The translations under genes and the position numbers were made by a program. From assembly GCF_003018115.1 (NCBI RefSeq), contig NZ_CP027457.1: a stretch of DNA of 64,000 nt. The stretch is one strand, 5' to 3'. The notes under the pieces are model-generated. The model was not told the origin of the DNA. It made no database searches and saw only the letters and a program-made list of their open reading frames with translations. This stretch comes from Escherichia coli (GTDB lineage Bacteria > Pseudomonadota > Gammaproteobacteria > Enterobacterales > Enterobacteriaceae). Every line of letters begins with the position of its first letter. Position 1 is the first letter of the stretch. Of the stretch, positions 25,708 through 48,636 are shown one piece after another.

Positions 25708-26991
25708 ATGGCTGATACAAAAGCAAAACTCACCCTCAACGGGGACACAGCTGTTGAACTGGATGTGCTGAAAGGCACGCTGGGTCAAGATGTTATTGAT
25801 ATCCGTACTCTCGGTTCAAAAGGTGTGTTCACCTTTGACCCAGGCTTCACTTCAACCGCATCCTGCGAATCTAAAATTACTTTTATTGATGGTGATGAAG
25901 GTATTTTGCTGCACCGCGGTTTCCCGATCGATCAGCTGGCGACCGATTCTAACTACCTGGAAGTTTGTTACATCCTGCTGAATGGTGAAAAACCGACTCA
26001 GGAACAGTATGACGAATTTAAAACTACGGTGACCCGTCATACCATGATCCACGAGCAGATTACCCGTCTGTTCCACGCTTTCCGTCGCGACTCACATCCA
26101 ATGGCAGTCATGTGTGGTATTACCGGCGCGCTGGCGGCGTTCTATCACGACTCGCTGGATGTTAACAATCCTCGTCATCGTGAAATTGCCGCGTTCCGCC
26201 TGCTGTCGAAAATGCCGACCATGGCCGCGATGTGTTACAAGTATTCCATTGGTCAGCCATTTGTTTATCCGCGCAACGATCTCTCCTATGCCGGTAACTT
26301 CCTGAATATGATGTTCTCCACGCCGTGCGAACCGTATGAAGTTAATCCGATTCTGGAACGTGCTATGGACCGTATTCTGATCCTGCACGCTGACCATGAA
26401 CAGAACGCCTCTACCTCCACCGTGCGTACCGCTGGCTCTTCGGGTGCGAACCCGTTTGCCTGTATCGCAGCAGGTATTGCTTCACTGTGGGGACCTGCGC
26501 ACGGTGGTGCTAACGAAGCGGCGCTGAAAATGCTGGAAGAAATTAGCTCCGTTAAACACATTCCGGAATTTGTTCGTCGTGCGAAAGATAAAAATGATTC
26601 TTTCCGCCTGATGGGCTTCGGTCACCGCGTGTACAAAAATTACGACCCGCGCGCCACCGTAATGCGTGAAACCTGCCATGAAGTTCTGAAAGAGCTGGGC
26701 ACCAAAGATGACCTGCTGGAAGTGGCTATGGAGCTGGAAAACATCGCGCTGAACGACCCGTACTTTATCGAGAAGAAACTGTACCCGAACGTCGATTTCT
26801 ACTCTGGTATCATCCTGAAAGCGATGGGTATTCCGTCTTCCATGTTCACCGTCATCTTCGCTATGGCCCGTACCGTTGGCTGGATCGCTCACTGGAGCGA
26901 AATGCACAGTGACGGCATGAAGATCGCCCGTCCGCGCCAGTTGTATACAGGATATGAAAAACGCGACTTTAAAAGCGATATCAAGCGTTAA
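25708..26991 (+). CDS. gltA: citrate synthase, 427 aa
   Basis: [37 protein letters not shown]-terminus and full length. Confidence 0.95.
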
Positions 26992-27019
26992 TGGTTGATT
27001 GCTAAGTTGTAAATATTTT

Positions 27020-27050
27020 AACCCGCCGTTCAAATGGCGGGTTAATTTTT
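27020..27050 (+). terminator. Rho-independent terminator of gltA (AACCCGCCGTTCAAATGGCGGGTT + T-run)
   Basis: GC-rich hairpin followed by TTAATTTTT, 30 bp after the gltA stop. Confidence 0.65.
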
Positions 27051-27381
27051 ATATACCTAAACACAAAAAATTGTAAAAATAAAATCCACTATCGGACATT
27101 CATATATTCTAAAAAAAAATATATCGGTATAAATTATAAACAAATCGATGATTTTTAATCATGTATCTTCCTCTCAGTTACATGAATAAACCACCAAATA
27201 TAGCGCACCCCTATAATTTCCAATACTTTATTCATCAAACATTTAATTCATACCATCAATTAATTACTTTTACATTTAATAAAATTAATAATATTTTTAA
27301 GAAAAACTAAAAACATTCGACAATCAAATAAGATATTCTTGCACCGATATACTTTTTTCTTTTCTGTTAAAGGACTCCGTT

Positions 27382-27948
27382 ATGTTTAAAGGACAAAAAA
27401 CATTGGCCGCACTGGCCGTATCTCTGTTGTTCACTGCACCTGTTTATGCAGCTGATGAAGGATCCGGTGCAATTCATTTTAAAGGTGAGGTTATTGAAGC
27501 GCCTTGTGAAATACATCAGGATGATATTGATAAAGAAGTTGAACTTGGTCAGGTGACCACCAGCCACATTAATCAGTCACATCACAGCGATGCCGTTGCT
27601 GTCGACCTGCGCTTAGTCAACTGTGATCTGGAAAACTCCAGCAACGGTTCCGGTGGCAAGATTTCTAAAGTTGCAGTCACCTTTGATAGCTCAGCGAAAA
27701 CCACCGGCGCAGATCCGATTCTCAACAACACCAGCACGGGTGAAGCCACCGGCGTCGGCGTGCGTTTATTGAATAAAGATCAAACCAATATCGTTTTAGG
27801 CACTGCTGCTCCAGACATCGACCTGGCACCGACCTCCAGCGAACAAACGCTGAATTTCTTTGCCTGGATGGAACAAATTGATCAGGCTACACCTGTAACG
27901 CCAGGTGCAGTTACAGCGAATGCTACCTACGTGCTGGATTATAAATAA
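27382..27948 (+). CDS. ybgD: fimbrial major subunit-like protein, 188 aa
   Basis: Signal peptide (LAALAVSLLFTAPVYA), fimbrial-subunit size, C-terminal YVLDYK-type strand; synteny. Confidence 0.8.
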   Translation: MFKGQKTLAALAVSLLFTAPVYAADEGSGAIHFKGEVIEAPCEIHQDDIDKEVELGQVTTSHINQSHHSDAVAVDLRLVNCDLENSSNGSGGKISKVAVTFDSSAKTTGADPILNNTSTGEATGVGVRLLNKDQTNIVLGTAAPDIDLAPTSSEQTLNFFAWMEQIDQATPVTPGAVTANATYVLDYK

Positions 27949-27998
27949 GTATTACTTTGGCGGCGCTATCGCCGCCTTTCTTCAAATATTTATCAGGT

Positions 27999-30458
27999 AT
28001 GGACACCGTGAATATTTATCGACTCTCTTTTGTATCCTGCCTGGTTATGGCGATGCCTTGCGCATTGGCGGTCGAATTCAACCTTAATGTTCTCGATAAA
28101 TCGATGCGAGACCGCATTGATATTTCATTATTAAAGGAAAAAGGAGTCATTGCTCCCGGTGAATATTTTGTTAGCGTTGCGGTGAATAACAACCAAATCA
28201 GTAATGGGCAAAAAATCAACTGGCAAAAAAAGGGTGACAAAACCATTCCATGCATCAATGATTCACTGGTCGATAAATTTGGTTTAAAACCAGATATCCG
28301 TCAGTCCTTGCCACAGATAGATCGGTGTATTGATTTCAGTTCCCGACCTGAAATGCTCTTCAATTTCGATCAAGCCAATCAGCAACTGAATATTAGTATT
28401 CCGCAAGCCTGGCTGGTGTGGCACTCAGAAAACTGGGCTCCCCCCTCTACATGGAAAGAAGGTGTCGCCGGTGTCCTGATGGATTACAACCTGTTTGCCA
28501 ACAGCTACCGCCCACAGGACGGCAGCAGCAGCACTAACCTGAACGCCTACGGTACCACCGGAATTAACGCCGGGTCATGGCGCTTACGCAGTGATTACCA
28601 GCTTAATAAGACCGATAGCGAAGATAGCCATGAACAGTCAGGCGGAATATCGCGCACCTATCTTTTTCGTCCATTACCGCAATTAGGCTCTAAATTAACC
28701 CTCGGCGAAACCGATTTCAGTTCCAATATTTTCGATGGTTTTTCTTATACCGGCGCGGCACTGGCGAGTGACGATCGAATGTTGCCATGGGAGCTACGCG
28801 GCTACGCCCCACAAATTAGCGGTATTGCACAGACCAATGCCACGGTGACGATCAGTCAATCAGGCCGCGTCATTTACCAGAAAAAAATTCCGCCAGGCCC
28901 GTTTATTATTGATGACCTCAATCAGTCTGTTCAGGGCACGCTGGATGTCAAAGTGACGGAAGAAGATGGTCGGGTGAACAATTTCCAGGTTTCGGCAGCA
29001 TCGACGCCCTTCCTGACTCGCCAGGGACAGGTTCGCTATAAACTGGCCGCGGGTCAGCCACGGCCTTCCATGTCACATCAAACTGAAAATGAAACCTTTT
29101 TTAGCAATGAAGTTTCCTGGGGGATGCTCTCAAACACCTCGCTGTACGGCGGCCTGCTGCTTTCTGGTGATGACTACCATTCTGCCGCAATGGGTATCGG
29201 GCAAAATATGCTGTGGCTTGGCGCGCTGTCGTTTGATGTCACCTGGGCCAGTAGCCATTTTGATACTCAGCAGGACGAGCGGGGCTTAAGCTACCGATTT
29301 AACTACAGCAAACAAGTGGATGCCACCAACAGCACGATTTCGCTCACCGCTTATCGCTTCTCCGATCGTCATTTTCACAGCTACGCCAACTATCTGGATC
29401 ACAAATACAACGACAGCGATGCGCAGGACGAAAAACAGACGATCAGCTTATCCGTGGGCCAACCGATTACCCCGCTAAACCTCAATCTTTACGCCAACCT
29501 GCTGCATCAAACCTGGTGGAATGCAGACGCCTCCACGACTGCCAACATCACAGCCGGTTTTAATGTTGATATTGGTGACTGGAGAGATATCTCGATTTCG
29601 ACGTCATTCAATACGACCCACTACGAAGATAAAGATCGCGACAACCAGATTTACCTGTCGATTTCGCTCCCCTTCGGTAACGGTGGTCGGGTTGGTTATG
29701 ACATGCAAAACAGTAGCCACAGCACCACACACCGCATGTCGTGGAACGATACGCTGGATGAACGTAATAGCTGGGGCATGTCTGCCGGACTGCAATCCGA
29801 CCGTCCTGACAATGGAGCCCAGGTGAGCGGTAACTATCAGCACCTGAGTTCAGCAGGTGAGTGGGATATTTCTGGTACCTATGCCGCCAATGATTACAGT
29901 TCCGTCAGCAGCAGCTGGAGCGGTTCTTTCACCGCAACCCAATATGGTGCAGCGTTTCATCGCCGCAGCTCCACCAATGAACCACGCCTGATGGTCAGCA
30001 CCGATGGCGTGGCAGATATTCCGGTTCAGGGCAATCTCGACTACACCAACCATTTTGGCATTGCGGTGGTGCCGTTGATTTCCAGTTACCAGCCTTCCAC
30101 CGTGGCGGTGAACATGAATGACTTACCCGACGGCGTTACAGTTGCAGAAAACGTTATCAAAGAAACGTGGATTGAAGGCGCGATAGGTTACAAATCACTG
30201 GCTTCCCGTTCCGGTAAAGACGTTAACGTCATCATTCGCAACGCCAGCGGTCAGTTTCCTCCCCTCGGAGCGGATATCCGCCAGGATGACAGCGGCATTA
30301 GCGTGGGGATGGTTGGCGAGGAAGGACATGCCTGGTTAAGCGGAGTCGCTGAAAATCAAAAGTTTACCGTGGTCTGGGGTGATAGCCAGCATTGCTCGCT
30401 CCATCTTCCTGAACATATGGAAGACACCGCAAATCGCCTGATTTTACCTTGTCATTAA
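27999..30458 (+). CDS. ybgQ: outer-membrane fimbrial usher, about 819 aa
   Basis: Large beta-rich protein with a signal peptide, following the subunit gene. Start chosen at the ATG inside the tracked ORF; uncertain by a few codons. Confidence 0.8.
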   Translation: MDTVNIYRLSFVSCLVMAMPCALAVEFNLNVLDKSMRDRIDISLLKEKGVIAPGEYFVSVAVNNNQISNGQKINWQKKGDKTIPCINDSLVDKFGLKPDIRQSLPQIDRCIDFSSRPEMLFNFDQANQQLNISIPQAWLVWHSENWAPPSTWKEGVAGVLMDYNLFANSYRPQDGSSSTNLNAYGTTGINAGSWRLRSDYQLNKTDSEDSHEQSGGISRTYLFRPLPQLGSKLTLGETDFSSNIFDGFSYTGAALASDDRMLPWELRGYAPQISGIAQTNATVTISQSGRVIYQKKIPPGPFIIDDLNQSVQGTLDVKVTEEDGRVNNFQVSAASTPFLTRQGQVRYKLAAGQPRPSMSHQTENETFFSNEVSWGMLSNTSLYGGLLLSGDDYHSAAMGIGQNMLWLGALSFDVTWASSHFDTQQDERGLSYRFNYSKQVDATNSTISLTAYRFSDRHFHSYANYLDHKYNDSDAQDEKQTISLSVGQPITPLNLNLYANLLHQTWWNADASTTANITAGFNVDIGDWRDISISTSFNTTHYEDKDRDNQIYLSISLPFGNGGRVGYDMQNSSHSTTHRMSWNDTLDERNSWGMSAGLQSDRPDNGAQVSGNYQHLSSAGEWDISGTYAANDYSSVSSSWSGSFTATQYGAAFHRRSSTNEPRLMVSTDGVADIPVQGNLDYTNHFGIAVVPLISSYQPSTVAVNMNDLPDGVTVAENVIKETWIEGAIGYKSLASRSGKDVNVIIRNASGQFPPLGADIRQDDSGISVGMVGEEGHAWLSGVAENQKFTVVWGDSQHCSLHLPEHMEDTANRLILPCH

Positions 30459-30472
30459 TTAAGGAAATGAAA

Positions 30473-31204
30473 ATGACATTTATGAAAGGACTACCCCTTT
30501 TGTTGTTGGTTGCCAGTCTGTGCAGCCACGCTGCACTACAACCCGATCGCACTCGTATTGTGTTTAACGCTAATGATAAAGCTACCAGTCTGCGGGTGGA
30601 TAATCGTAGCGATAAACTCCCCTACCTCGCTTATTCCTGGCTCGAAAATGAAAAAGGGGAGAAAAGCGATGATCTTCTGGTCGCCCTGCCGCCGATACAA
30701 CGTCTGGAACCGAAAGCAACAACGCAGGTACGGATAGTAAAGCAAGCCTCGACCACAAAATTACCGGGCGATCGCGAAACGCTATTTTTCTACAATATGC
30801 GTGAAATTCCTCCCGCCCCGGAAAAAAACAGCGACCATGCCGTTCTGCAAGTCGCCATTCAGAGTCGTATCAAGGTGTTCTGGCGACCGGCTGCATTACG
30901 CAAGAAAGCAGGAGAAAAGGTCGAACTGCAGTTACAGGTCAGCCAGCAGGGCAACCAACTGACACTGAAAAATCCTACCGCGTATTATCTGACCATTGCC
31001 TACCTGGGACGAAATGAAAAAGGCGTTCTCCCCAGCTTCAAAACCGTGATGGTTGCGCCTTTTAGTACGGTCAACACAAACACCGGAAATTATAGCGGCA
31101 GCCAGTTTTATCTCGGTTATATGGATGATTACGGCGCGTTACGCATGACGACGCTCAACTGCAGCGGACAATGCCATTTACAAGCCGTGGAGGCGAAGAA
31201 ATGA
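30473..31204 (+). CDS. ybgP: periplasmic fimbrial chaperone (PapD-like), about 243 aa
   Basis: Signal peptide and chaperone-like length; start chosen at the ATG with an AAGGA spacer; overlaps the usher stop. Confidence 0.8.
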
Positions 31205-32262
31205 GTGCTGGCAAGGGAGTGTTGCTCGTCATCTGTCTGTTATTTCTGCCGTTGAAGTCTGCGCTTGCCCTGAACTGCTACTTTGGTTCATCCGGTGGCT
31301 CGGTAGAAAAATCAGAAGCGATTCAACCTTTTGCTGTACCAGGCAATGCCAAACTCGGCGATAAGATTTGGGAATCTGACGATATTAAAATTCCCGTCTA
31401 TTGTGACAACAATACCAACGGCAATTTTGAAAGTGAGCATGTTTATGCCTGGGTAAACCCCTACCCGGGGGTGCAGGATCGCTATTATCAACTCGGCGTA
31501 ACTTACAATGGCGTTGATTATGACGCCAACCAGGGAAAAAGCCGCATCGACACTAACCAGTGTATCGACAGTAAGAACATTGACATTTATACCCCTGAGC
31601 AGATTATCGCGATGGGATGGCAGAACAAAATTTGCTCGGGTGATCCCGCTAATATTCACATGTCGCGTACCTTTCTCGCTCGCATGCGGTTATACGTCAA
31701 AATACGAGAAATGCCGCCGCATGATTATCAAAGTACGCTTAGCGACTATATCGTCGTGCAATTTGACGGTGCCGGTAGCGTTAACGAAGATCCTACTGCC
31801 CAAAACCTGAAATATCATATTACCGGTCTGGAAAACATTCGCGTGCTGGATTGCAGCGTCAATTTTTCCATTTCACCGGAAACACAGGTGATTGATTTTG
31901 GTAAATTTAATTTGCTGGATATTCGTCGCCACACAATGTCGAAAACATTCAGTATTAAGACGACAAAATCACAAAATGACCAATGCACCGACGGATTTAA
32001 AGTCAGTTCCTCCTTTTATACCGAAGAAACGTTGGTTGAAGAAGATAAAGCATTGTTGATTGGTAATGGTCTGAAGCTACGTTTGCTGGATGAAAACGCC
32101 TCGCCTTATACATTCAATAAATATACTGAATACGCCGATTTCACCAGCGATATGCTGATCTACGAAAAAACCTATACGGCTGAACTTTCGTCCATTGCAG
32201 GCACCCCCATCGAGGCTGGCCCCTTCGATACAGTGGTGCTTTTTAAGATTAACTATAACTGA
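31201..32262 (+). CDS. ybgO: fimbrial adhesin-like protein, 353 aa
   Basis: Signal peptide; last gene of the chaperone-usher operon; overlaps the ybgP stop. Confidence 0.7.
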
Positions 32263-32413
32263 CTTGCCATGATGCCCTTTGCAGCCGGAAAGGGCATCTC
32301 TTTCAGAAAATTGCTGATTTTCCCCTTTTCCTTGATTGCTGTTATTTTTTCCTGGCCCGGCTTTCTTTATGCTGTATCGATACACCAAAGAGAAAATAAT
32401 GAGGGAGCAAAGG

Positions 32414-33460
32414 ATGCCAGTTTTGCAGTGGGGAATGTTATGTGTGCTATCACTTCTCCTTTCTATTGGTTTCCTCGCGGTACATCTCCCGGCGGCATTA
32501 TTACTTGGGCCGATGATCGCCGGGATCATCTTTAGTATGCGCGGGGTTACCCTGCAACTCCCCCGCTCCGCTTTTCTCGCCGCGCAGGCCATTCTTGGCT
32601 GCATGATTGCGCAAAACTTGACCGGTTCGATCCTGACCACGCTGGCGGTTAACTGGCCGATTGTGTTAGCTATTTTACTGGTGACGTTGCTTTCCAGCGC
32701 TATCGTGGGATGGCTACTGGTGCGCTATAGCTCACTGCCCGGAAATACTGGTGCCTGGGGCTCCTCGCCTGGCGGGGCGGCGGCAATGGTCGCGATGGCG
32801 CAGGATTACGGCGCAGATATCCGCCTGGTGGCGTTTATGCAGTATCTGCGAGTGCTGTTTGTCGCGGGGGCCGCAGTTCTGGTCACGCGAATGATGCTGG
32901 GCGATAACGCTGAAGCGGTTAACCAGCATATCGTCTGGTTCCCGCCAGTGAGCATTAATCTCCTGCTTACTATTTTGCTCGCGGTCGTTGCCGGTACAGT
33001 GGGATGCCTGCTGCGTCTTCCTTCCGGCACGATGCTCATCCCGATGCTTGCGGGCGCAGTGCTCCAGTCTGGTCAGCTCATCACCATCGAACTACCGGAA
33101 TGGCTGCTGGCGATGGCGTATATGGCAATTGGCTGGCGGATTGGTCTTGGTTTCGATAAACAAATATTACTGCGGGCATTGCGCCCACTGCCACAAATCC
33201 TGCTGTCGATTTTTGCTCTGCTGGCTATTTGTGCGGGTATGGCGTGGGGACTGACCCGGTTTATGCACATTGATTTTATGACTGCCTACCTCGCCACCAG
33301 CCCCGGCGGGCTTGATACCGTGGCGGTCATCGCCGCAGGGAGCAATGCCGATATGGCGCTCATTATGGCGATGCAAACCCTGCGCCTGTTCAGTATTTTG
33401 CTGACTGGGCCTGCCATTGCACGGTTTATTTCGACCTATGCGCCGAAGCGGTCGGCCTAG
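32414..33460 (+). CDS. abrB: AbrB-family membrane protein (putative regulator), 348 aa
   Basis: Start placed at MPVLQWGML; polytopic hydrophobic protein; synteny with nei. Confidence 0.8.
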
Positions 33461-34248
33461 TGCTGGCAGCCTGGACACCAGTAAAACGGGCGCGAGGACA
33501 ACGTGGTTTTCTCAATGATGCCGCCACAGCGTTCGCACAGTTCGCCATCACGATGAAAAACCTTAAAGCGAAACAGCGCCCCATGATGCTTATTCTCATC
33601 CACCTGCCCCCGCGTAGCGTAAGAAAATCGAGGAATCTCCAGTAACGCGTGTGCGAGTGCATCCAGTTGCGCCGCATTGAGATCTTTCGCTTTATGATTT
33701 CCAGTCAACCCAACCTGCCAGAGGATCTCCACCCGCAAATAATTGCCAAGTCCTGCCAGAAACGCCTGATCGAGCAGTAATCCAGCAAACTGACGGTTAC
33801 GAAAGCGCGGCGACAATAACCGTTCTTTCACCACCTCCGGCGTCAGATTCGGATCCAGCACATCGGGACCAACGCGTTGTAAAAACGGATGCGTGGTCAG
33901 TTGTTCCGGCCTCAACATCTCAATATCCGAGGCGCTATAAAGCAGAATGGTTTTGTCAGCCGTTTGCAGTTTTACCCGCAATACTCGCGTGGTCTGCGAC
34001 TCTTCGCCGGTATCAACCACGCGCCAGACGCCATAAAGCTGATTATGGCTGTAGAGCGTTAAGTCGTTGGAAAAATGAGTTAACAACGCCTTACCACGCG
34101 TTTCCACATGGGTAACGTGTTGACCGATAAGTTGTGATTGATAAGTTTTTAACTGCGGGAAGGCAAACCAGACATCAGTTAGTGGTTTGCCTTTGATCGC
34201 CGCCTCCAGGTTATCCGCTGCACGGCGGATCTCCGGGCCTTCAGGCAT
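33457..34248 (-). CDS. nei: endonuclease VIII (DNA glycosylase/AP lyase), 263 aa
   Basis: N-terminal [18 protein letters not shown] (Fpg/Nei catalytic P2-E3) and C-terminal zinc finger [25 protein letters not shown]. Confidence 0.9.
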
Positions 34249-41182: not shown

Positions 41183-41355
41183 TACTGCTCCTGAACGGTT
41201 TACAGGAGTAAGTGTAGACGATGGTAAATGAATTTTGTGGGGTTATGCTTTCTTCCCTACCAAGCTGTTATATCCAGTTCAAAAACAATCATTTTACATC
41301 ATCATCAAAGCAGCGAATACTTGACCGATTGGTAGTACCGCTGCATATTTCACCA

Positions 41356-41613
41356 TCAATTATATTTTATAATTTGTTGTATTGCTGACTTTATATTGCC
41401 AATGACATCCTCATCATTAAATTCATTTAATATATTTTTTAGAATAGGATGTAGTTTAATATCACCTAAAATACCTGCCGAAATAATCACTTCATCAAAA
41501 ATTATGTTTTTTTGCAGTTCATAAATTATAGCAGTTATAACACGATTATCTTTTCTTTCTGCCAGTCCGCTTATAGCTTCAATTCTGGCACAATCATTCT
41601 TATCTGTCAGCAT
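41356..41613 (-). pseudogene. 85-codon ORF with HEAT-like repeat character; possible remnant of a gene disrupted by the adjacent H-repeat element
   Basis: Starts 13 nt after the H-repeat ORF stop, in a different frame, with no convincing RBS. Repeat-like AISGLAE.../ILGDIKLHPILKNIL pattern. Weak call. Confidence 0.25.
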
Positions 41614-42762: not shown

Positions 42763-43420
42763 TTTGTTCTCCTTAATTATGTAAGGAGTATTTGATCATG
42801 TATAAGCAATAAAAAACAGCTTCAGGTAATGAGGAATATCTCAATTTTTAAACATAAAATGCGAATTATTTAGTACAAAAAGTGAACTTCTGATGATCTT
42901 TCCCTGTGATTGCTTCCCGTTTCCCGATACGGCGGCGCGGGGAGTCATAAAGGTAAGAAATTTCCAGCAGTACGGCGTCCTATTGTTCACGGCGGTAATG
43001 CACCAGCCAGTATTGGCTATCGTAGTGATAACCGTGTAACCTGCCGCCGCATCGCGTATCTAATGTTCATTCTTTTCCATAAACCGTCCGTACACATTGT
43101 GATAGTAAAAATACAATACATCTTCGCTGATGCGGTTATTCTGCTGCATGTGGGAAGCGCCGAATACTGCTCCCGGTATGGCCAGTAATTACTATTTAGT
43201 ACGACGTTAGGGGGAGTCACTTAATCTCACAGATACTTCAAGTAACAGATGAAAATCGCTCCTGAAATGAAAAAAGAATTTTTTTTGAATGTGTTTCTGT
43301 CAAATCAAGTGGTTTTTTCGTCGATATGTAGAGTCATATTGTACACAAAATAGTTACGAAACACACCTTGGTAAAATATTTGAATCGACTGTACAGTGGA
43401 TTATTTTGTGTGTATTACAT

Positions 43421-43675
43421 TCAACACTTGCCCATCTTTTTCGCTATTAGTATTGTAAAATTTCCTCCTAACGTCTTCGGTTGTTTTCCCTCGATTTTCC
43501 AACAATTATTGTCATCTGTAATACTATATGGTTTCTGAAATTCTGCTTTTTCTTTCCCGTATACATATTTAATGTAAACATATGATAATTCCAAAGCCAT
43601 TTCACGACTATTTACTAAAATTTCCACAGGATTTTCTTTTCCAAATACTGAGTGTGATATTGTAAACAATATCAT
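43421..43675 (-). CDS. small hypothetical protein, 84 aa; candidate orphan immunity protein
   Basis: ORF directly downstream of a short toxin-like open frame (about 43712-43849, minus strand) in the Rhs-associated AT-rich region. No family recognised. Confidence 0.3.
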   Translation of the reverse strand: MILFTISHSVFGKENPVEILVNSREMALELSYVYIKYVYGKEKAEFQKPYSITDDNNCWKIEGKQPKTLGGNFTILIAKKMGKC

Positions 43676-43870
43676 AATAAGTAATATTAGTGAGTTTCTC
43701 GTGTTCTACACCTATCGAATCTCAAAAGTTGTGGGTAAAACATTACATTCAGAATATATGATATTCTTACCATCGGAATCCATTTTTCCAAATCGACCTT
43801 CTGGTGTACCTGGATATCCATTAAGAACATGTTTTTCCGAATGGTTAATTTATTTTCTCAGGAAGATGTT

Positions 43871-44440
43871 TTATTTTTCTTCACTACGAAGCAGTTCATG
43901 CTGTATTTTTGTTAAACATTCGTAAGACTCATCTTTGTTCGGGAGATGTGCTGTCATTCGAGCATAAGTTGGCTTCTCATCTTTAAAATATTTAACCATG
44001 ATTGAATTATCAAGGACTGCCAACAACTGAGCTGGATCACTGCTCTTTTTTTGATAGATACCCGCTCTTATATAACTTCTAAACCGATCGCCGAGAAACG
44101 CCGTTTTTTCTGCTGTATTTATCAACTCCTGCAACGTTCCTTTGATGGTATGATTTTCATTAAGGCGTAGTGACCCGACGCGAATTAAGAGTCTCGCCCC
44201 GCTTGGTGTGAATTTATTATTTTTACATGTGCCCAGTTCTGTTTGCCAATAATACTCACCGATGTCCTCATTCTGATACCATCTCCACATGGCTTTATTA
44301 TTTAAGACAGGAAACGCGGAAAAAATAGTACCCTTAGCGAAAATAGTAAAACAATCATGATCTTTAGCTTGTATTTCGCAATCAGCTATAACACCAAAAC
44401 TAACAAATATCATCAGCAAAAAGAACAAAACTCTTTTCAT
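43871..44440 (-). CDS. Rhs immunity candidate with a Sec signal peptide, 189 aa (YbfC-like)
   Basis: Starts inside the last codons of the Rhs gene (4-nt overlap). N-terminus [21 protein letters not shown] is a classical signal peptide with a V-I-A cleavage motif. Confidence 0.6.
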
Positions 44441-47400
44441 TTTCTTATTCCTCTCGATGTTCTCTGTTTCATTTTAGCTAAAATTTCACCCAAATCATCT
44501 ATCCCTGCTGTTGCTGGCCCATCGGGTTTATTAATGTCTGGGAATAAATAGGGTTCTGCACAAGTATATCCTGGTGGTAATTGAGTTGTTGGCCAATTTG
44601 TCTGTGGCAGGTAATCACTTGCTGTCTTTGTATCCATCCCTGGATACTGGGGATCATCCTGTGGCGTACAAGTCAGATTTGGTTTTACCCACTTCCTGCA
44701 ATACAGTGTGTAGTCGTAAGGGCTTAATACTCTGAAGAATGTTTTGAAAACATTAGGCGCACTACTGGCCTGGTCAATAGGATATGGCAGTCTTAATTGT
44801 TTCGCTATGTCTGGCAATTTACTTGGATCGGGCGTAGGCGGTTTGTTGGGTCTCGCTCCATATCCGCCATTATTTAAGTGTCCATATTTTGATGCCAGTC
44901 CCATTGAATCTATATACTGAACCGGATTCAACGGATACTGATAAAAATTCCATCCCCCCTTCAGTCCAATCGGATCCTGAGTGATATATCGCCCCTGCAG
45001 CGGGTCATAATAGCGGTGGCGGTTGTAATACAGGCCGGACTCCTCATCATACTGCTGCCCCGGCAGGCGGATAAGCTGCTGCAGCTGATGCGGGTTCTCT
45101 TCATTCAGCAGGTTGCCCCACTCATCGTATTCTGCGCACCATTCTGTTGCCCCTTCCGTGCTGATAAGCACCAGCGGCAGGCCGCGATGGTCGCAGTGGT
45201 ACAGGTGAATTTTTCGCGCCGGCGTGTACACCGGGTCCAGCTGGTTTTGCATCTGCTTCACCGTCAGGCCGCACGATGCCAGCCAGCGGCGGCTTTCCTC
45301 ACTCACCCGGTCAGCCAGGATTTCACTTTCCAGCCGGTCGAGCATCTGCACCAGCACCGGCGGGAACACCACACTGCCACCGTCTTCGCCGCCGGACTGC
45401 TGAAGCGCATCCGCCAGGCTGCGGCGCTGCGTTTTCGCCAGCTCACCGGTGGCGGTTTCAACCCTGATGAGTGGCGTGAAGCTCCCCGGCTGATAAATCG
45501 TCTGGATGCGGGTTCTGTCGTTCTGTATTGTGGTCAGCCGGTCGCCGTCCCAGCCGTACCAGGTCACTTGCGGTTTCCGTGACAGCGACATCCAGCCCGT
45601 CAGGTCCCGTTCACGTCGCCACACCCGTTTTGCCACCCTGCGGCCCAGCGGGTCGTAAAGATAGCGACTTTCGACCAGCGGCTCTGCATATTGTGTCCGC
45701 GTGTAGTGCACCAGCCGGTGCTGACTGTCGTAATGGTACCGGTGGGTGCGCTCATCATCCGTGCGGATAACCCCTTCCGGGATGAGGTCGGTTTTCTCTG
45801 TCAGTCTGCCGTGACGGTCATACCGGTAAAGATAGTGCGCGTCACGGGCGATACGGTTATCCGGCCACATGCTGAGGGTGCTGTCCGGGTGCAGCTCCGG
45901 GTCGGGCAGGCGGTTACCTGCCGGGTCTGTGGCATACGGGATGCGGATATCCAGAGTTGAGGTGGTGGTGTGAACGCCGGTCAGCCTGCCGGTGGTGCTG
46001 TAGCTGTAACTCCGGGTATGGCGCGGGCTGCTGATGCGGATGAGTTCGCCGTTGTCGTTCCAGGTGTAATCGCGGTCATACTGCAGGCTGTTCAGGTGCT
46101 GACGCTGTAACTGCCCGGCAGGGGTGTAAGCGGTGGTGAGTTCATAACGGCCGAAGCTGCGCAGCGTTTCCCGGTGCAGGCGGTCGCGGGTGAAATCCAC
46201 CAGCGGTGTGTCGCCGAGCTTCATGCCTGCCAGGTAACCGCTGCCGTAGGCCAGCCATTCCACGGCGGGCAGGCTGTCCGGTATACAGCGGTTCGCCAGT
46301 CCCTGCGCGTTGTACGCATGTCTGGTCTCATGCTGCCAGAGCAGTGCTTCCGTCTGCGGGTGATGCACCGTCTGACGCTCACCGGTCAGCCGGCCTTTCT
46401 CATCATACCCGTAATGCACCGTCACCCGGTGCCCTTCGCTGATATGGCTGATGTCTGTCAGCCAGCCGCGTTCGTCGTACCGCCACCGCTCTGCGGTTTC
46501 ACCCTTCACGGTGCGCTGCGTGAGGCGGTCTGCTTCGTCATAGTGCCAGTGGGTGACCAGCCCCTCATCCTCGCTGCGGATAAGTTTGCCGGTCAGGTCG
46601 TGGTGATAACGCTGTGTGCGGCCGTCAAAGCCGGTTTCCTGTATCAGCCGGTCGAGTACATCGTAACGGAAGGTGGTGTGGCTGCCGTTTTCACTGGTCA
46701 GGCGGATGACCCGTCCGGCAGCATTGTATTCCATACTGCGCGTCAGACCGCCCTGCGTGGTACGGATGGCCTTTCCCCACGCATCGTACTGTGTCCCGTT
46801 TCTGCTGCCGTCCGGGGCAATGACGGCGGTCAGGTCACCGGCGATGTTGTATTCATACCGCATTTCATGGCCCTGCATGTCTTTCACCGCAATTAACTGT
46901 CCACGGCTGTCGTATGCACGGTACTGGCTCAGCCCTTCCTCGCGGTGCACCGCCGTCATCTGCCCGAAGCGGTCATGGTCATAACGGGTTACATAACCGG
47001 AACAGTCGGTGAAGCTCAGCAACTGGCCGTAACGGCTCCATGTCATGGTTTTCCGGCTGCCGGTGGCATCGTCCGTTGCGCAGGGTAAGTCACTGTGTGG
47101 ATTATCATAACGGTAGCGGGTGATATCGCCGTTGTGTGCAGTTTCCTGAATCAGACGGCCCAATTCATCATATTCCCGGCGTATTTCCAGCCCGTCTGGC
47201 CCGGTGGCTGACGTTAACTGGCTGTGGTGGTTATAGTAAAACGCCGATGCCCTGCCATCCGGCGTGGTGATGCGCGTGATGAGTCCCGTCACCACATCCG
47301 GGCTGTACTCAGTCGTCCGGCCTGCGGCATCCGTCTGTGCCTTAAGCCTGCCCACCGCGTCAAACTGACTCTGCGTGACGCTGCCGTCCGCGTGTTCCTT

Positions 47401-48636
47401 TTTCACCACCCGCTTCAGCCCGGCTTCACCCTGCGTGTGCAGGACTTCACGGCGGTCCAGGCTGTCGGTGATGGTGATGCGGTCTTTCTCATACTGATAC
47501 GTGTAGCTTAAGCCTGCCGGGTTTAGCTGTTCTGTCACCCGCCCGTCGCGGTCGTAACGGTAACGGATTTCCGGTCGGCCCGTGTGACGGTGCGCCACCA
47601 TCCGGCCCCGGTATTTATCATCGTAAGTAAAGCTGCGCACCTGTGTATTGCTGCGGTCATACACCGCCGCCAGTTCGCCGCGCGGCGTCCAGCCATAGCG
47701 CACCAGCGGCGCGGCAGGTAAATTCTCCGGGTATTCCGGGTCGTGCGTCAGCCACACGGCAGACAGACGGATGCCGTTGTCCCGGCCATATTCGGTGTAA
47801 CCCGGCAGGGTATCAGGAAAAGCGGACGGTTCCGTCCCGCCGGAAATGGCCTGCTGCCGGGCTTCTTCTGCCCGCTGCGCCTGCGTGGTCAGTACCAGCC
47901 GGAAGTGACGCCCGGCACCATCCGTCACGCCGGTGATTTCGCCGCTGAATTCACCGGCGGCTTCGCGGTGGAACGTCTGTGTGCGCCCGAAGCGGTCCAC
48001 CAGCCCGGTCAGTACCCGGTACGGCGGCAGCGGCGCAGGCAGCACCTCATCCGCTTCCGGCACCCGCTCACACCAGCCGAGCAGCCACCACGGCCCCTGC
48101 GGGCTGTTTGTCGCCAGATAACGATGCGGACTTAAGCGGAGTTCTTCCGGCAGCGCCTGCCAGAGTGCGGCCAGCCGGTGACCTTCATCCAGTTTCGCCA
48201 CACCGCCGCGCACCAGCCACAGTGACTCGCTGCGGCTGTAACCGTCCTCACGGGGAAACAGGTGCTCAAAATACAGGCTTCTGCCGCCGTTATCACTGAG
48301 TATCAGTGTGTTATCGCGCAGCTGTAAGCGGATATCCGCAGGCATTTTCCAGCCGGGGCCGAGGCTCCCCACCGGCGCGGGCGTTTTTGTCCGGTAACTG
48401 CTGTAGGTGCGGGAGAGAATGAACGGCAGCGGGGCGGGCAGGGCGATGTCGGTTTCACCGGGAAGGACCTTTGCACCCAGCAGCGGATTGACCGGATGGC
48501 CGGACGTCACTCCGCCGGGGCACACCGAACAGGCCACGCCGGTGGGGGCACCAATGCGCACCCCGGCTGAACCCTGGACAATGCTACCGCCATACTGCGT
48601 CATGTCGCCCTGACGCGCCGCCGGTTTTCCGCTCAT
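44437..48636 (-). CDS. rhsC: Rhs-family polymorphic toxin, 1399 aa: conserved core with YD repeats, then a ~150-aa variable C-terminal toxin domain after [27 protein letters not shown]
   Basis: N-terminus [33 protein letters not shown] and YD-repeat core match E. coli Rhs proteins as remembered; locus position next to ybfA/kdp corresponds to rhsC. C-terminal domain family not recognised. Confidence 0.9.

Follow-up and report, generated by a model that had tools for sequence, protein, structure and literature searches.

What is the fimbrial gene cluster that lies between gltA and abrB in this Escherichia coli chromosome, is it intact, and is it silenced? We analysed a 64,000-nucleotide stretch of contig NZ_CP027457.1 (hereafter the window), in which a first-pass annotation had read positions 26992-32262 as a cryptic chaperone-usher operon behind an H-NS-silenced promoter, with the tip adhesin as its most variable component. 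Our analysis indicates that this segment is very probably an intact allele of the already-described E. coli Ybg operon (ybgD-ybgQ-ybgP-ybgO), a chaperone-usher system of the pi (P-pilus-like) clade with a minimal set of four genes, situated between gltA and abrB. The operon is ordinary and already known, and no feature of it falls outside known kinds.

The Ybg locus and its four products

The gene order gltA - ybgD - ybgQ - ybgP - ybgO - abrB - nei extends over window positions 25708-34248, as established from the listing of open reading frames (ORFs), Pfam matches and comparison with annotated E. coli genomes and their RefSeq gene names. Both the flanks and the gene order match those of K-12 RR1 and F9792, the window being oriented as the reverse complement of the K-12 map, and start codons were taken from the RefSeq annotation of strain F9792, which is 99.8% identical. 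Synteny, RefSeq gene names and domain content bear out the chaperone-usher identity that had been assigned to ybgD-ybgQ-ybgP-ybgO, and the earlier observation that frameshifts and premature stops are absent holds as well: all four genes are full-length, with lengths within one codon of the K-12, O157:H7, 222, WG5 and F9792 orthologues. Hidden frameshifts or pseudogenes were rejected, as none were found in the window or in these five comparison strains. The operon consists of a pilin, an usher, a chaperone and a tip adhesin; it lacks adaptor subunits, a terminator subunit and linked regulator genes.

The usher anchors the assignment to the Ybg locus. YbgQ contains PapC_N (119.5 bits), Usher (621.9 bits) and PapC_C (48.7 bits) domains, all above gathering cut-offs, and its 97.2% amino-acid identity to K-12 YbgQ identifies the two as orthologues. 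A phmmer search of the PDB returned PapC at 521 bits versus FimD at 273 bits, with a full-length match to PapC chain 7lhg_C. On these scores YbgQ would group with PapC-type rather than gamma-type (FimD) ushers and so belong to the pi clade; ybg has been listed as a pi family (PMC5216030). The chaperone YbgP matches PapD_N (118.6 bits) and PapD_C (54.8 bits), and its translation carries the PapD-type subunit-anchoring residues in DRTR (Arg8) and SRIKVFWRP (Lys112-equivalent), a numbering that we take over from PapD.

YbgD displays each of the characteristics of a major subunit. It has a pilin fold (PF00419, Fimbrial, 104.9 bits), a signal peptide ending in VYA (...APVYA, followed by ADEG), a FimA-like N-terminal donor-strand extension (GSGAIHFKGEVIEAPC) and a C-terminus (...PGAVTANATYVLDYK) bearing the Gly(-14)/Tyr(-2) motif; both the donor strand and the C-terminus are kept in all alleles. 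Against the YbgD equivalog model NF007276 (PRK09733), however, it scores 132.4 bits versus a cut-off of 189, and RefSeq gives the window-type pilin no ybgD gene name, such that the divergence of ybgD is large enough for automated naming to fail. The window pilin is nevertheless the positional YbgD orthologue, in a deeply divergent allele, and membership of the Ybg locus is unaffected, being defined by the usher and by position. The Shine-Dalgarno (SD) sequence of ybgD, AAGGA, lies at 27370-27374. It is contained in a 9-nt string, TTAAAGGAC (27367-27375), that is repeated exactly 19 nt further on at 27386-27394, within codons 2-4. Alleles that are otherwise ~70% identical show no change in the ybgD ATG and first 18 coding bases (ATGTTTAAAGGACAAAAAA) and keep the upstream SD core AAGGA.

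The proposal that YbgO is the tip adhesin is upheld by its two-domain architecture, a receptor-binding domain followed by a pilin domain with no donor strand. For its first ~200 residues neither Pfam nor NCBIfam has a matching model; the protein lacks an N-terminal donor strand and has the Gly(-14)/Tyr(-2) C-terminal motif, and its pilin domain is supported by structure prediction and fold searches despite a Pfam score under the cut-off. AlphaFold2, run on a 31-sequence alignment, gave a confident two-domain model (predicted local distance difference test, pLDDT, 87.8), whose best whole-length Foldseek matches were the two-domain tip adhesins LpfD, FimH, CupB6, PapG and CsuE. Two PDB entries titled 'Fimbrial protein', 9RX0 and 9RWW, are 100% identical to YbgO residues 24-217, so that a solved structure already exists for the receptor-binding domain of this very allele. 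A further three entries, 9RWU, 9RWV and 9RWE, are YbgO homologues scoring 85-117 bits against the receptor-binding domain by phmmer. No paper behind these five crystal structures was found in the literature searched, and they are apparently unpublished; all five are absent from the Foldseek PDB copy of 2026-04-08 and are probably later releases than 8 April 2026. The YbgO adhesin family is thus apparently under active characterisation by others. Full-length YbgO homologues at 57-64% identity are present in Salmonella, Citrobacter, Enterobacter and Kluyvera.

Table 1 Features of the ybg operon and its leader, with positions in the window.
Feature	Position	Strand	Description
gltA intrinsic terminator	27018-27045	+	12-bp stem TTAACCCGCCGT/ATGGCGGGTTAA followed by TTTTTAT; terminator scan
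AT-rich spacer / ybgD promoter region	27050-27381	+	GC 23.8%; orthologue of the K-12 H-NS-bound 'promoter island'; hypervariable between strains
Promoter-like site TAAACA-16-TAAAAT	27058-27085	+	Scan; hexamers same as the genomic-SELEX ybgD promoter proposed for K-12
Inverted repeat, left arm AAAAAAATATATCGGT	27113-27128		16 nt; pairs 15/16 with 27343-27358 across 214 nt
Second promoter-like site TTTACA-17-TATTTT	27269-27297	+	Consensus match alone; ~85 nt upstream of ybgD ATG
Inverted repeat, right arm ACCGATATACTTTTTT	27343-27358		24 nt upstream of ybgD ATG
ybgD	27382-27948	+	Major pilin, 188 aa
GC hairpin GGCGGCG-CTAT-CGCCGCC then TTTCTTC	27959-27976	+	Between pilin and usher genes; top terminator-like match, 7 GC pairs
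ybgQ	27999-30458	+	Outer-membrane usher, 819 aa
Group of the three closest matches to the high-affinity H-NS motif TCGATAAATT	28013-28279		AT-richer 5' part of ybgQ, GC 37-42%
ybgP	30473-31204	+	Periplasmic chaperone, 243 aa
ybgO	31201-32262	+	Two-domain tip adhesin, 353 aa
YbgO signal peptide			Residues 1-23
YbgO receptor-binding domain	31270-31851		Residues 24-217
YbgO pilin domain	31852-32259		Residues 218-353
Candidate operon terminator hairpin GATGCCCTTT-gcagccgg-AAAGGGCATC then TCTTTC	32271-32298	+	9 nt past ybgO stop; weak T-run; read from sequence

The genes had also been described as overlapping one another, which is correct for a single junction: ybgP and ybgO share 4 nt (ATGA), with GGAGG placed 7 nt upstream of the ybgO ATG, whereas ybgD and ybgQ are separated by 50 nt and ybgQ and ybgP by 14 nt, the latter gap holding AAGGA 7 nt before the ybgP ATG at 30473. 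Other apparent overlaps arise solely with the longest TTG-started ORFs; a TTG start for ybgQ inside the GC hairpin is implausible, and the ybgQ start context TCAGGTATGGA is invariant across alleles. This hairpin, held in the 50-nt gap between ybgD and ybgQ, is conserved: the GGCGGC/GCCGCC stem shows no change among five alleles, O157 with its different flanks included, and O157 has T-A in place of G-C as the seventh pair (one compensatory pair). The pap and fim operons offer an analogy for the role of a hairpin after the major pilin gene, and that of ybg is likely to serve as an intra-operon attenuator or mRNA stabiliser setting a high pilin-to-usher ratio. The candidate hairpin past ybgO did not appear in the output of the terminator-like scan. 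Upstream of the locus, the sdhC-gltA intergenic region encodes a RefSeq-annotated conserved 35-aa hypothetical protein, WP_001305582.1 (25395-25502, + strand), which is identical in all strains fetched and sits in an AT-rich divergent promoter region (GC 31-36%).

Variation and selection across strains

The tip adhesin gene had been named as the most variable component of the operon; comparison between strains reverses this, ybgO being the least variable of the fimbrial genes, and ybgD and the leader varying most. Amino-acid identity to the K-12 and O157:H7 proteins respectively is 78.7% and 70.7% for YbgD, 90.5% and 78.6% for YbgP, 97.2% and 82.8% for YbgQ, and 97.2% and 86.4% for YbgO, and the corresponding nucleotide identities are 74.9% and 70.5% for ybgD versus 94.7% and 79.5% for ybgO. 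Across 5,426 complete E. coli genomes, ybgD is at least 99% identical to the window allele in 12 genomes and ybgO in 1,165, while identities of 60-80% were recorded for ybgD in 1,338 genomes versus 412 for ybgO. Protein clustering at 90% identity likewise separates YbgD into many E. coli clusters (66-97% identity) and YbgO into few. Three deep allele classes exist for ybgD, and the changes in YbgD sit centrally, the donor strand and C-terminus being kept. The receptor-binding domain was rejected as a focus of variation, since its per-site differences equal those of the YbgO pilin domain.

All four genes are under purifying selection, with ratios of nonsynonymous to synonymous divergence (dN/dS) of 0.04-0.15, lowest in ybgO (0.036-0.071), and dS between allele classes reaches 1.2-1.9 as opposed to 0.04-0.09 in adjoining gltA. 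The strong purifying selection on a conserved YbgO suggests a conserved receptor, which makes this adhesin a reasonable target for receptor identification. For typing of Ybg, it is the pilin gene and promoter spacer, not the adhesin, that should be expected to differ most between strains.

Recombination has made a mosaic of the locus. Overall nucleotide identity to K-12 is 91.3%, and strain WG5 combines window-like ybgD and ybgQ with K-12-identical ybgP and ybgO. Within the window, positions 30275-30700 (the 3' end of ybgQ and 5' end of ybgP) are 76-86% identical to K-12, with a one-codon length difference in both genes. High-density single-nucleotide polymorphisms (SNPs) in ybgP and a 'frameshift' in ybgQ have been reported relative to the K-12 reference (PMC12547504); these calls may be artefacts of allele replacement. 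The 5' half of abrB (32473-32800) is 88-91% identical to K-12, F9792, 222 and WG5 and 96-100% identical to O157:H7; this pattern is reversed inside ybg, and recombination breakpoints therefore flank the operon on the abrB side as well. Whole-locus matches to the window at 99% or more number only 6-7 genomes. The leader type of the window is near-identical in F9792, avian pathogenic E. coli (APEC) O78 and RM9975, and the idea that this type is rare was rejected, full-length single-piece matches at ~97% being common. Across the species, then, diversification and recombination affect the promoter spacer and the surface-exposed core of YbgD, giving deep allele classes, while the adhesin is conserved.

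Expression, proposed silencing and persistence of the operon

From the gltA stop to the ybgD start there are 390 nt, which had been described as an AT-rich leader throughout. The extreme AT-richness is confirmed, but the first ~55 nt are the gltA terminator, the GC core of whose stem is kept in all leader alleles. The lowest-GC 332-nt stretch of the whole window falls in the spacer that follows, at 22.6% versus a mean of 51.4%, far beyond chance, and H-NS favours tracts of this composition (~23% GC across >300 nt). The only other stretches of the window under 30% GC over 332 nt are 41209-41609 and 43368-43878, which flank ORFs next to a 1,399-aa ORF (44437-48636, minus strand), probably encoding an Rhs protein. 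A structured leader RNA or known RNA family was rejected: the RNA fold z-score is -0.74, and an Rfam search of the leader returned no family at threshold, with a sub-threshold match on the gltA terminator only.

The attribution of silencing to H-NS finds support in the literature for the K-12 orthologue and, for the strain analysed here, stands as an argument from composition. The K-12 spacer is one of 78 'promoter islands' (751980_413, ybgD/gltA) and is H-NS-bound in all compiled chromatin immunoprecipitation (ChIP) studies (PMC3661553, Table 1); such islands are associated with genes of presumed foreign origin (Panyukov and Ozoline 2013; PMC3661553). A promoter list from genomic SELEX (systematic evolution of ligands by exponential enrichment) gives 'TAAACA-16-TAAAAT ybgD' with an HNS flag in K-12 (PMC3946193), and many cryptic chaperone-usher operons are H-NS-repressed, according to Wurpel 2013, citing Korea 2010. 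The site at 27058-27085 has the same sequence in K-12 and is changed in leaders of the WG5/222 type. Over its first ~100 nt, this site included, the spacer is ~97% identical to K-12; beyond that point the window leader is 62-75% identical to K-12, 56-65% to WG5/222 and ~40% to O157. We infer from composition that H-NS binds 27050-27381 in this strain too. With one mismatch or fewer, the motif TCGATAAATT occurs 15 times in the 64 kb, and three two-mismatch matches lie in the spacer; the sole exact match in the window is at 28270-28279 and, with one-mismatch matches at 28013 and 28093, marks the 5' part of ybgQ as a possible downstream H-NS nucleation site.

The label 'cryptic' is only partly apt. 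Expression is low in K-12, according to papers citing Korea et al. 2010, but this is not general: all four ybg genes are 1.6-2.3 log2-fold higher in non-O157 Shiga toxin-producing E. coli (STEC) associated with haemolytic uraemic syndrome (HUS) (PMC6033998), and BolA overexpression raises ybgD (PMC4337573). In addition, the K-12 operon promotes adhesion when expressed, according to papers citing Korea et al. 2010 (PMC8249706, PMC6033998). The term thus fits K-12 in the laboratory and not the operon in general.

Low expression could have causes other than H-NS. The spacer might instead be a weak or activator-dependent promoter, responding for example to BolA or to host signals, with its AT-richness a by-product of horizontal origin; the response of ybgD to BolA, the differing expression between STEC groups and the lack of enrichment of promoter-like sites over shuffles would all fit such a promoter, and the H-NS data concern other leader alleles. 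We consider this unlikely, as the K-12 spacer is bound in every compiled ChIP set and carries the HNS flag in SELEX, the GC content suits H-NS, and the spacer contains motif matches, with a cluster of others in 5' ybgQ; moreover, such a promoter and H-NS silencing are not mutually exclusive. The leader might also harbour a phase-variation switch, either a segment bounded by the 16-nt inverted repeat and flipped in trans by a Fim-type recombinase, or a methylation switch of the Pap type (Dam/Lrp). Phase variation is common among fimbrial operons, the repeat brackets 214 nt containing a promoter-like site facing ybgD, and its 15/16 pairing was reached in just 2 of 300 dinucleotide shuffles. However, the repeat is not conserved in the K-12, WG5, 222 and O157 leaders, each of which shows just the many imperfect repeats common to these AT-rich leaders, and no recombinase or regulator gene lies in or beside the operon. 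When a construct in which 27129-27342 had been reverse-complemented served as query, no genome reached 80% coverage, while many genomes match both flanks at 97-100%, and the invertible switch was rejected as unlikely; the absence of any GATC site from 26992-27381 excludes the Pap-type methylation switch, which was rejected likewise. A switch of either kind is thus highly improbable, and the inverted repeat is left as a minor unexplained feature. Beside its left arm, the poly-A tract at 27111-27119 varies, being A9 in the window, F9792 and RM9975 and A8 in APEC O78. We give scarcely any credence to the repeat being functional in this leader type, whether as the ends of a rarely flipped promoter segment (Fim-family recombinases acting in trans) or as a long-range helix in a ~290-nt 5' untranslated region occluding the region just upstream of the ybgD ribosome-binding site; if it were, allele-specific ON/OFF control would be layered over H-NS silencing. 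A reading more probable than this one is that the deep classes of ybgD and leader (dS 1.2-1.9) are kept by frequency-dependent selection from antibodies or phages, in which case the 'cryptic' fibre would be regularly expressed in hosts.

A different account of the silence is that the operon is a decaying relic, silenced since it is non-functional and heading for deletion. The locus is carried at 80% length or more by 4,157 of the 5,426 complete genomes (77%), ~600 genomes keep as a scar only the last ~320-390 nt of ybgO, and ~660 have no ybgO match. In SC477 (L004:5873-6393) a deletion corresponding to window positions 27088 to 31870 leaves the gltA terminator, ~100 nt of leader and the last 393 nt of ybgO, encoding the pilin domain; IS1 insertions are found at the locus in several strains, and in ET650 (L005) IS1 lies at the deletion junction. 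The gltA-abrB gap of the sequence type (ST) 131 O25:H4 strain CU568-3 (L010:1105-8910) is occupied by another island of ~8 kb, with no ybgO remnant, encoding a tripartite ATP-independent periplasmic (TRAP) transporter, two UxaA-family hydrolases, a short-chain dehydrogenase/reductase (SDR), a zinc alcohol dehydrogenase, an RraA-family protein and a GntR regulator, and this gap is therefore a replacement hot spot. This distribution agrees with the description of Ybg as core-associated, present mainly in commensal and diarrhoeagenic strains, but 'not intact in many strains' (Wurpel et al. 2013), and in Shigella flexneri 2457T the annotation gives ybgO as a pseudogene (PMC6854044). Decay is nonetheless improbable: every gene is full-length in the window and in five strains that together represent all allele classes, the assembly residues are kept, all four transcripts are detected and differentially expressed in STEC (PMC6033998), and dN/dS stays at 0.04-0.15 even at dS above 1, which indicates long-term purifying selection.

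Several points weigh against our reading of the locus as an intact Ybg operon held down by H-NS. The C-terminal Fimbrial domain of YbgO (218-353) scores 23.7 bits, below the Pfam cut-off of 25.6, and the operon is lost or replaced in ~23% of genomes and so is not essential. Promoter-like sites in the spacer do not exceed shuffles (8 versus 9.2), because of which the promoter assignment at 27058-27085 stays a candidate. Since the leader is 62-75% identical past its first ~100 nt, the K-12 ChIP data carry over to it by composition alone, and the evidence on expression and H-NS binding all comes from strains other than this one. Functional claims for ybg are second-hand, coming from papers that cite Korea et al. 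2010, and the role given to the hairpin after ybgD is drawn by analogy alone.

On the reading that we favour, an intact Ybg operon silenced by H-NS, transcription would start in the AT-rich spacer, where polymerising H-NS would hold expression down, possibly acting also on the motif-rich 5' part of ybgQ. The hairpin past ybgD may attenuate read-through or stabilise the pilin message, giving an excess of pilin over usher, chaperone and adhesin, and translation of ybgP and ybgO may be coupled via their ATGA overlap. All four products would be exported by Sec, and YbgP is predicted to cap the subunits by donor-strand complementation. A YbgP-YbgO complex would then prime the YbgQ usher and so place YbgO at the tip, with YbgD polymerising beneath it by donor-strand exchange via its N-terminal extension.

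Relation to known fimbrial systems

As annotation, the present assignment matters little, since publications already cover the operon and its clade, the patchiness of its distribution and the binding of H-NS to the K-12 promoter, and a PDB structure exists for the adhesin domain of this allele. The closest system is K-12 Ybg itself, which shares locus, gene order, flanking genes and protein lengths (188, 818/819, 242/243 and 353 aa), with YbgQ and YbgO 97% identical; it is nevertheless a different allele, diverging in ybgD, in the central leader and in the block formed by the 3' end of ybgQ and the 5' end of ybgP. The K-12 promoter island and the window spacer are alike in position, length and composition, whereas their central sequence differs by 25-38%.

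Among NCBIfam models, the highest scores come from the Salmonella Std, Ste and Stf systems: StdB (644 bits) for the usher, and SteC (185 bits), StfD (172 bits) and StdC (170 bits) for the chaperone. All of them fall well short of the equivalog cut-offs (644 versus 1289 in one instance), and these systems are therefore relatives, not orthologues. Type 1 fimbriae (fim) share the assembly logic, and the best fold matches include two-domain adhesins of the FimH kind (1qun). The variation pattern is common to both as well, the major pilin (FimA in fim) being hypervariable except at its conserved ends and the adhesin (FimH) conserved. They differ in belonging to clade gamma1, the FimD score being about half the PapC score, and ybg lacks the fimS element and fimB/fimE. 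P pili (pap) resemble ybg in several respects: the usher is closest to PapC, the chaperone carries the PapD DRTR and Lys motifs, a hairpin lies past the major pilin gene, and the adhesin gene comes last and encodes two domains, with a size near that of PapG (316-residue chain 7lhg_G). Unlike pap, ybg comprises four genes only, with no papI/papB regulators, GATC/Lrp switch, adaptor or minor subunits (PapK/E/F) or PapH terminator, and the receptor-binding domain of YbgO has no detectable sequence similarity to that of PapG.

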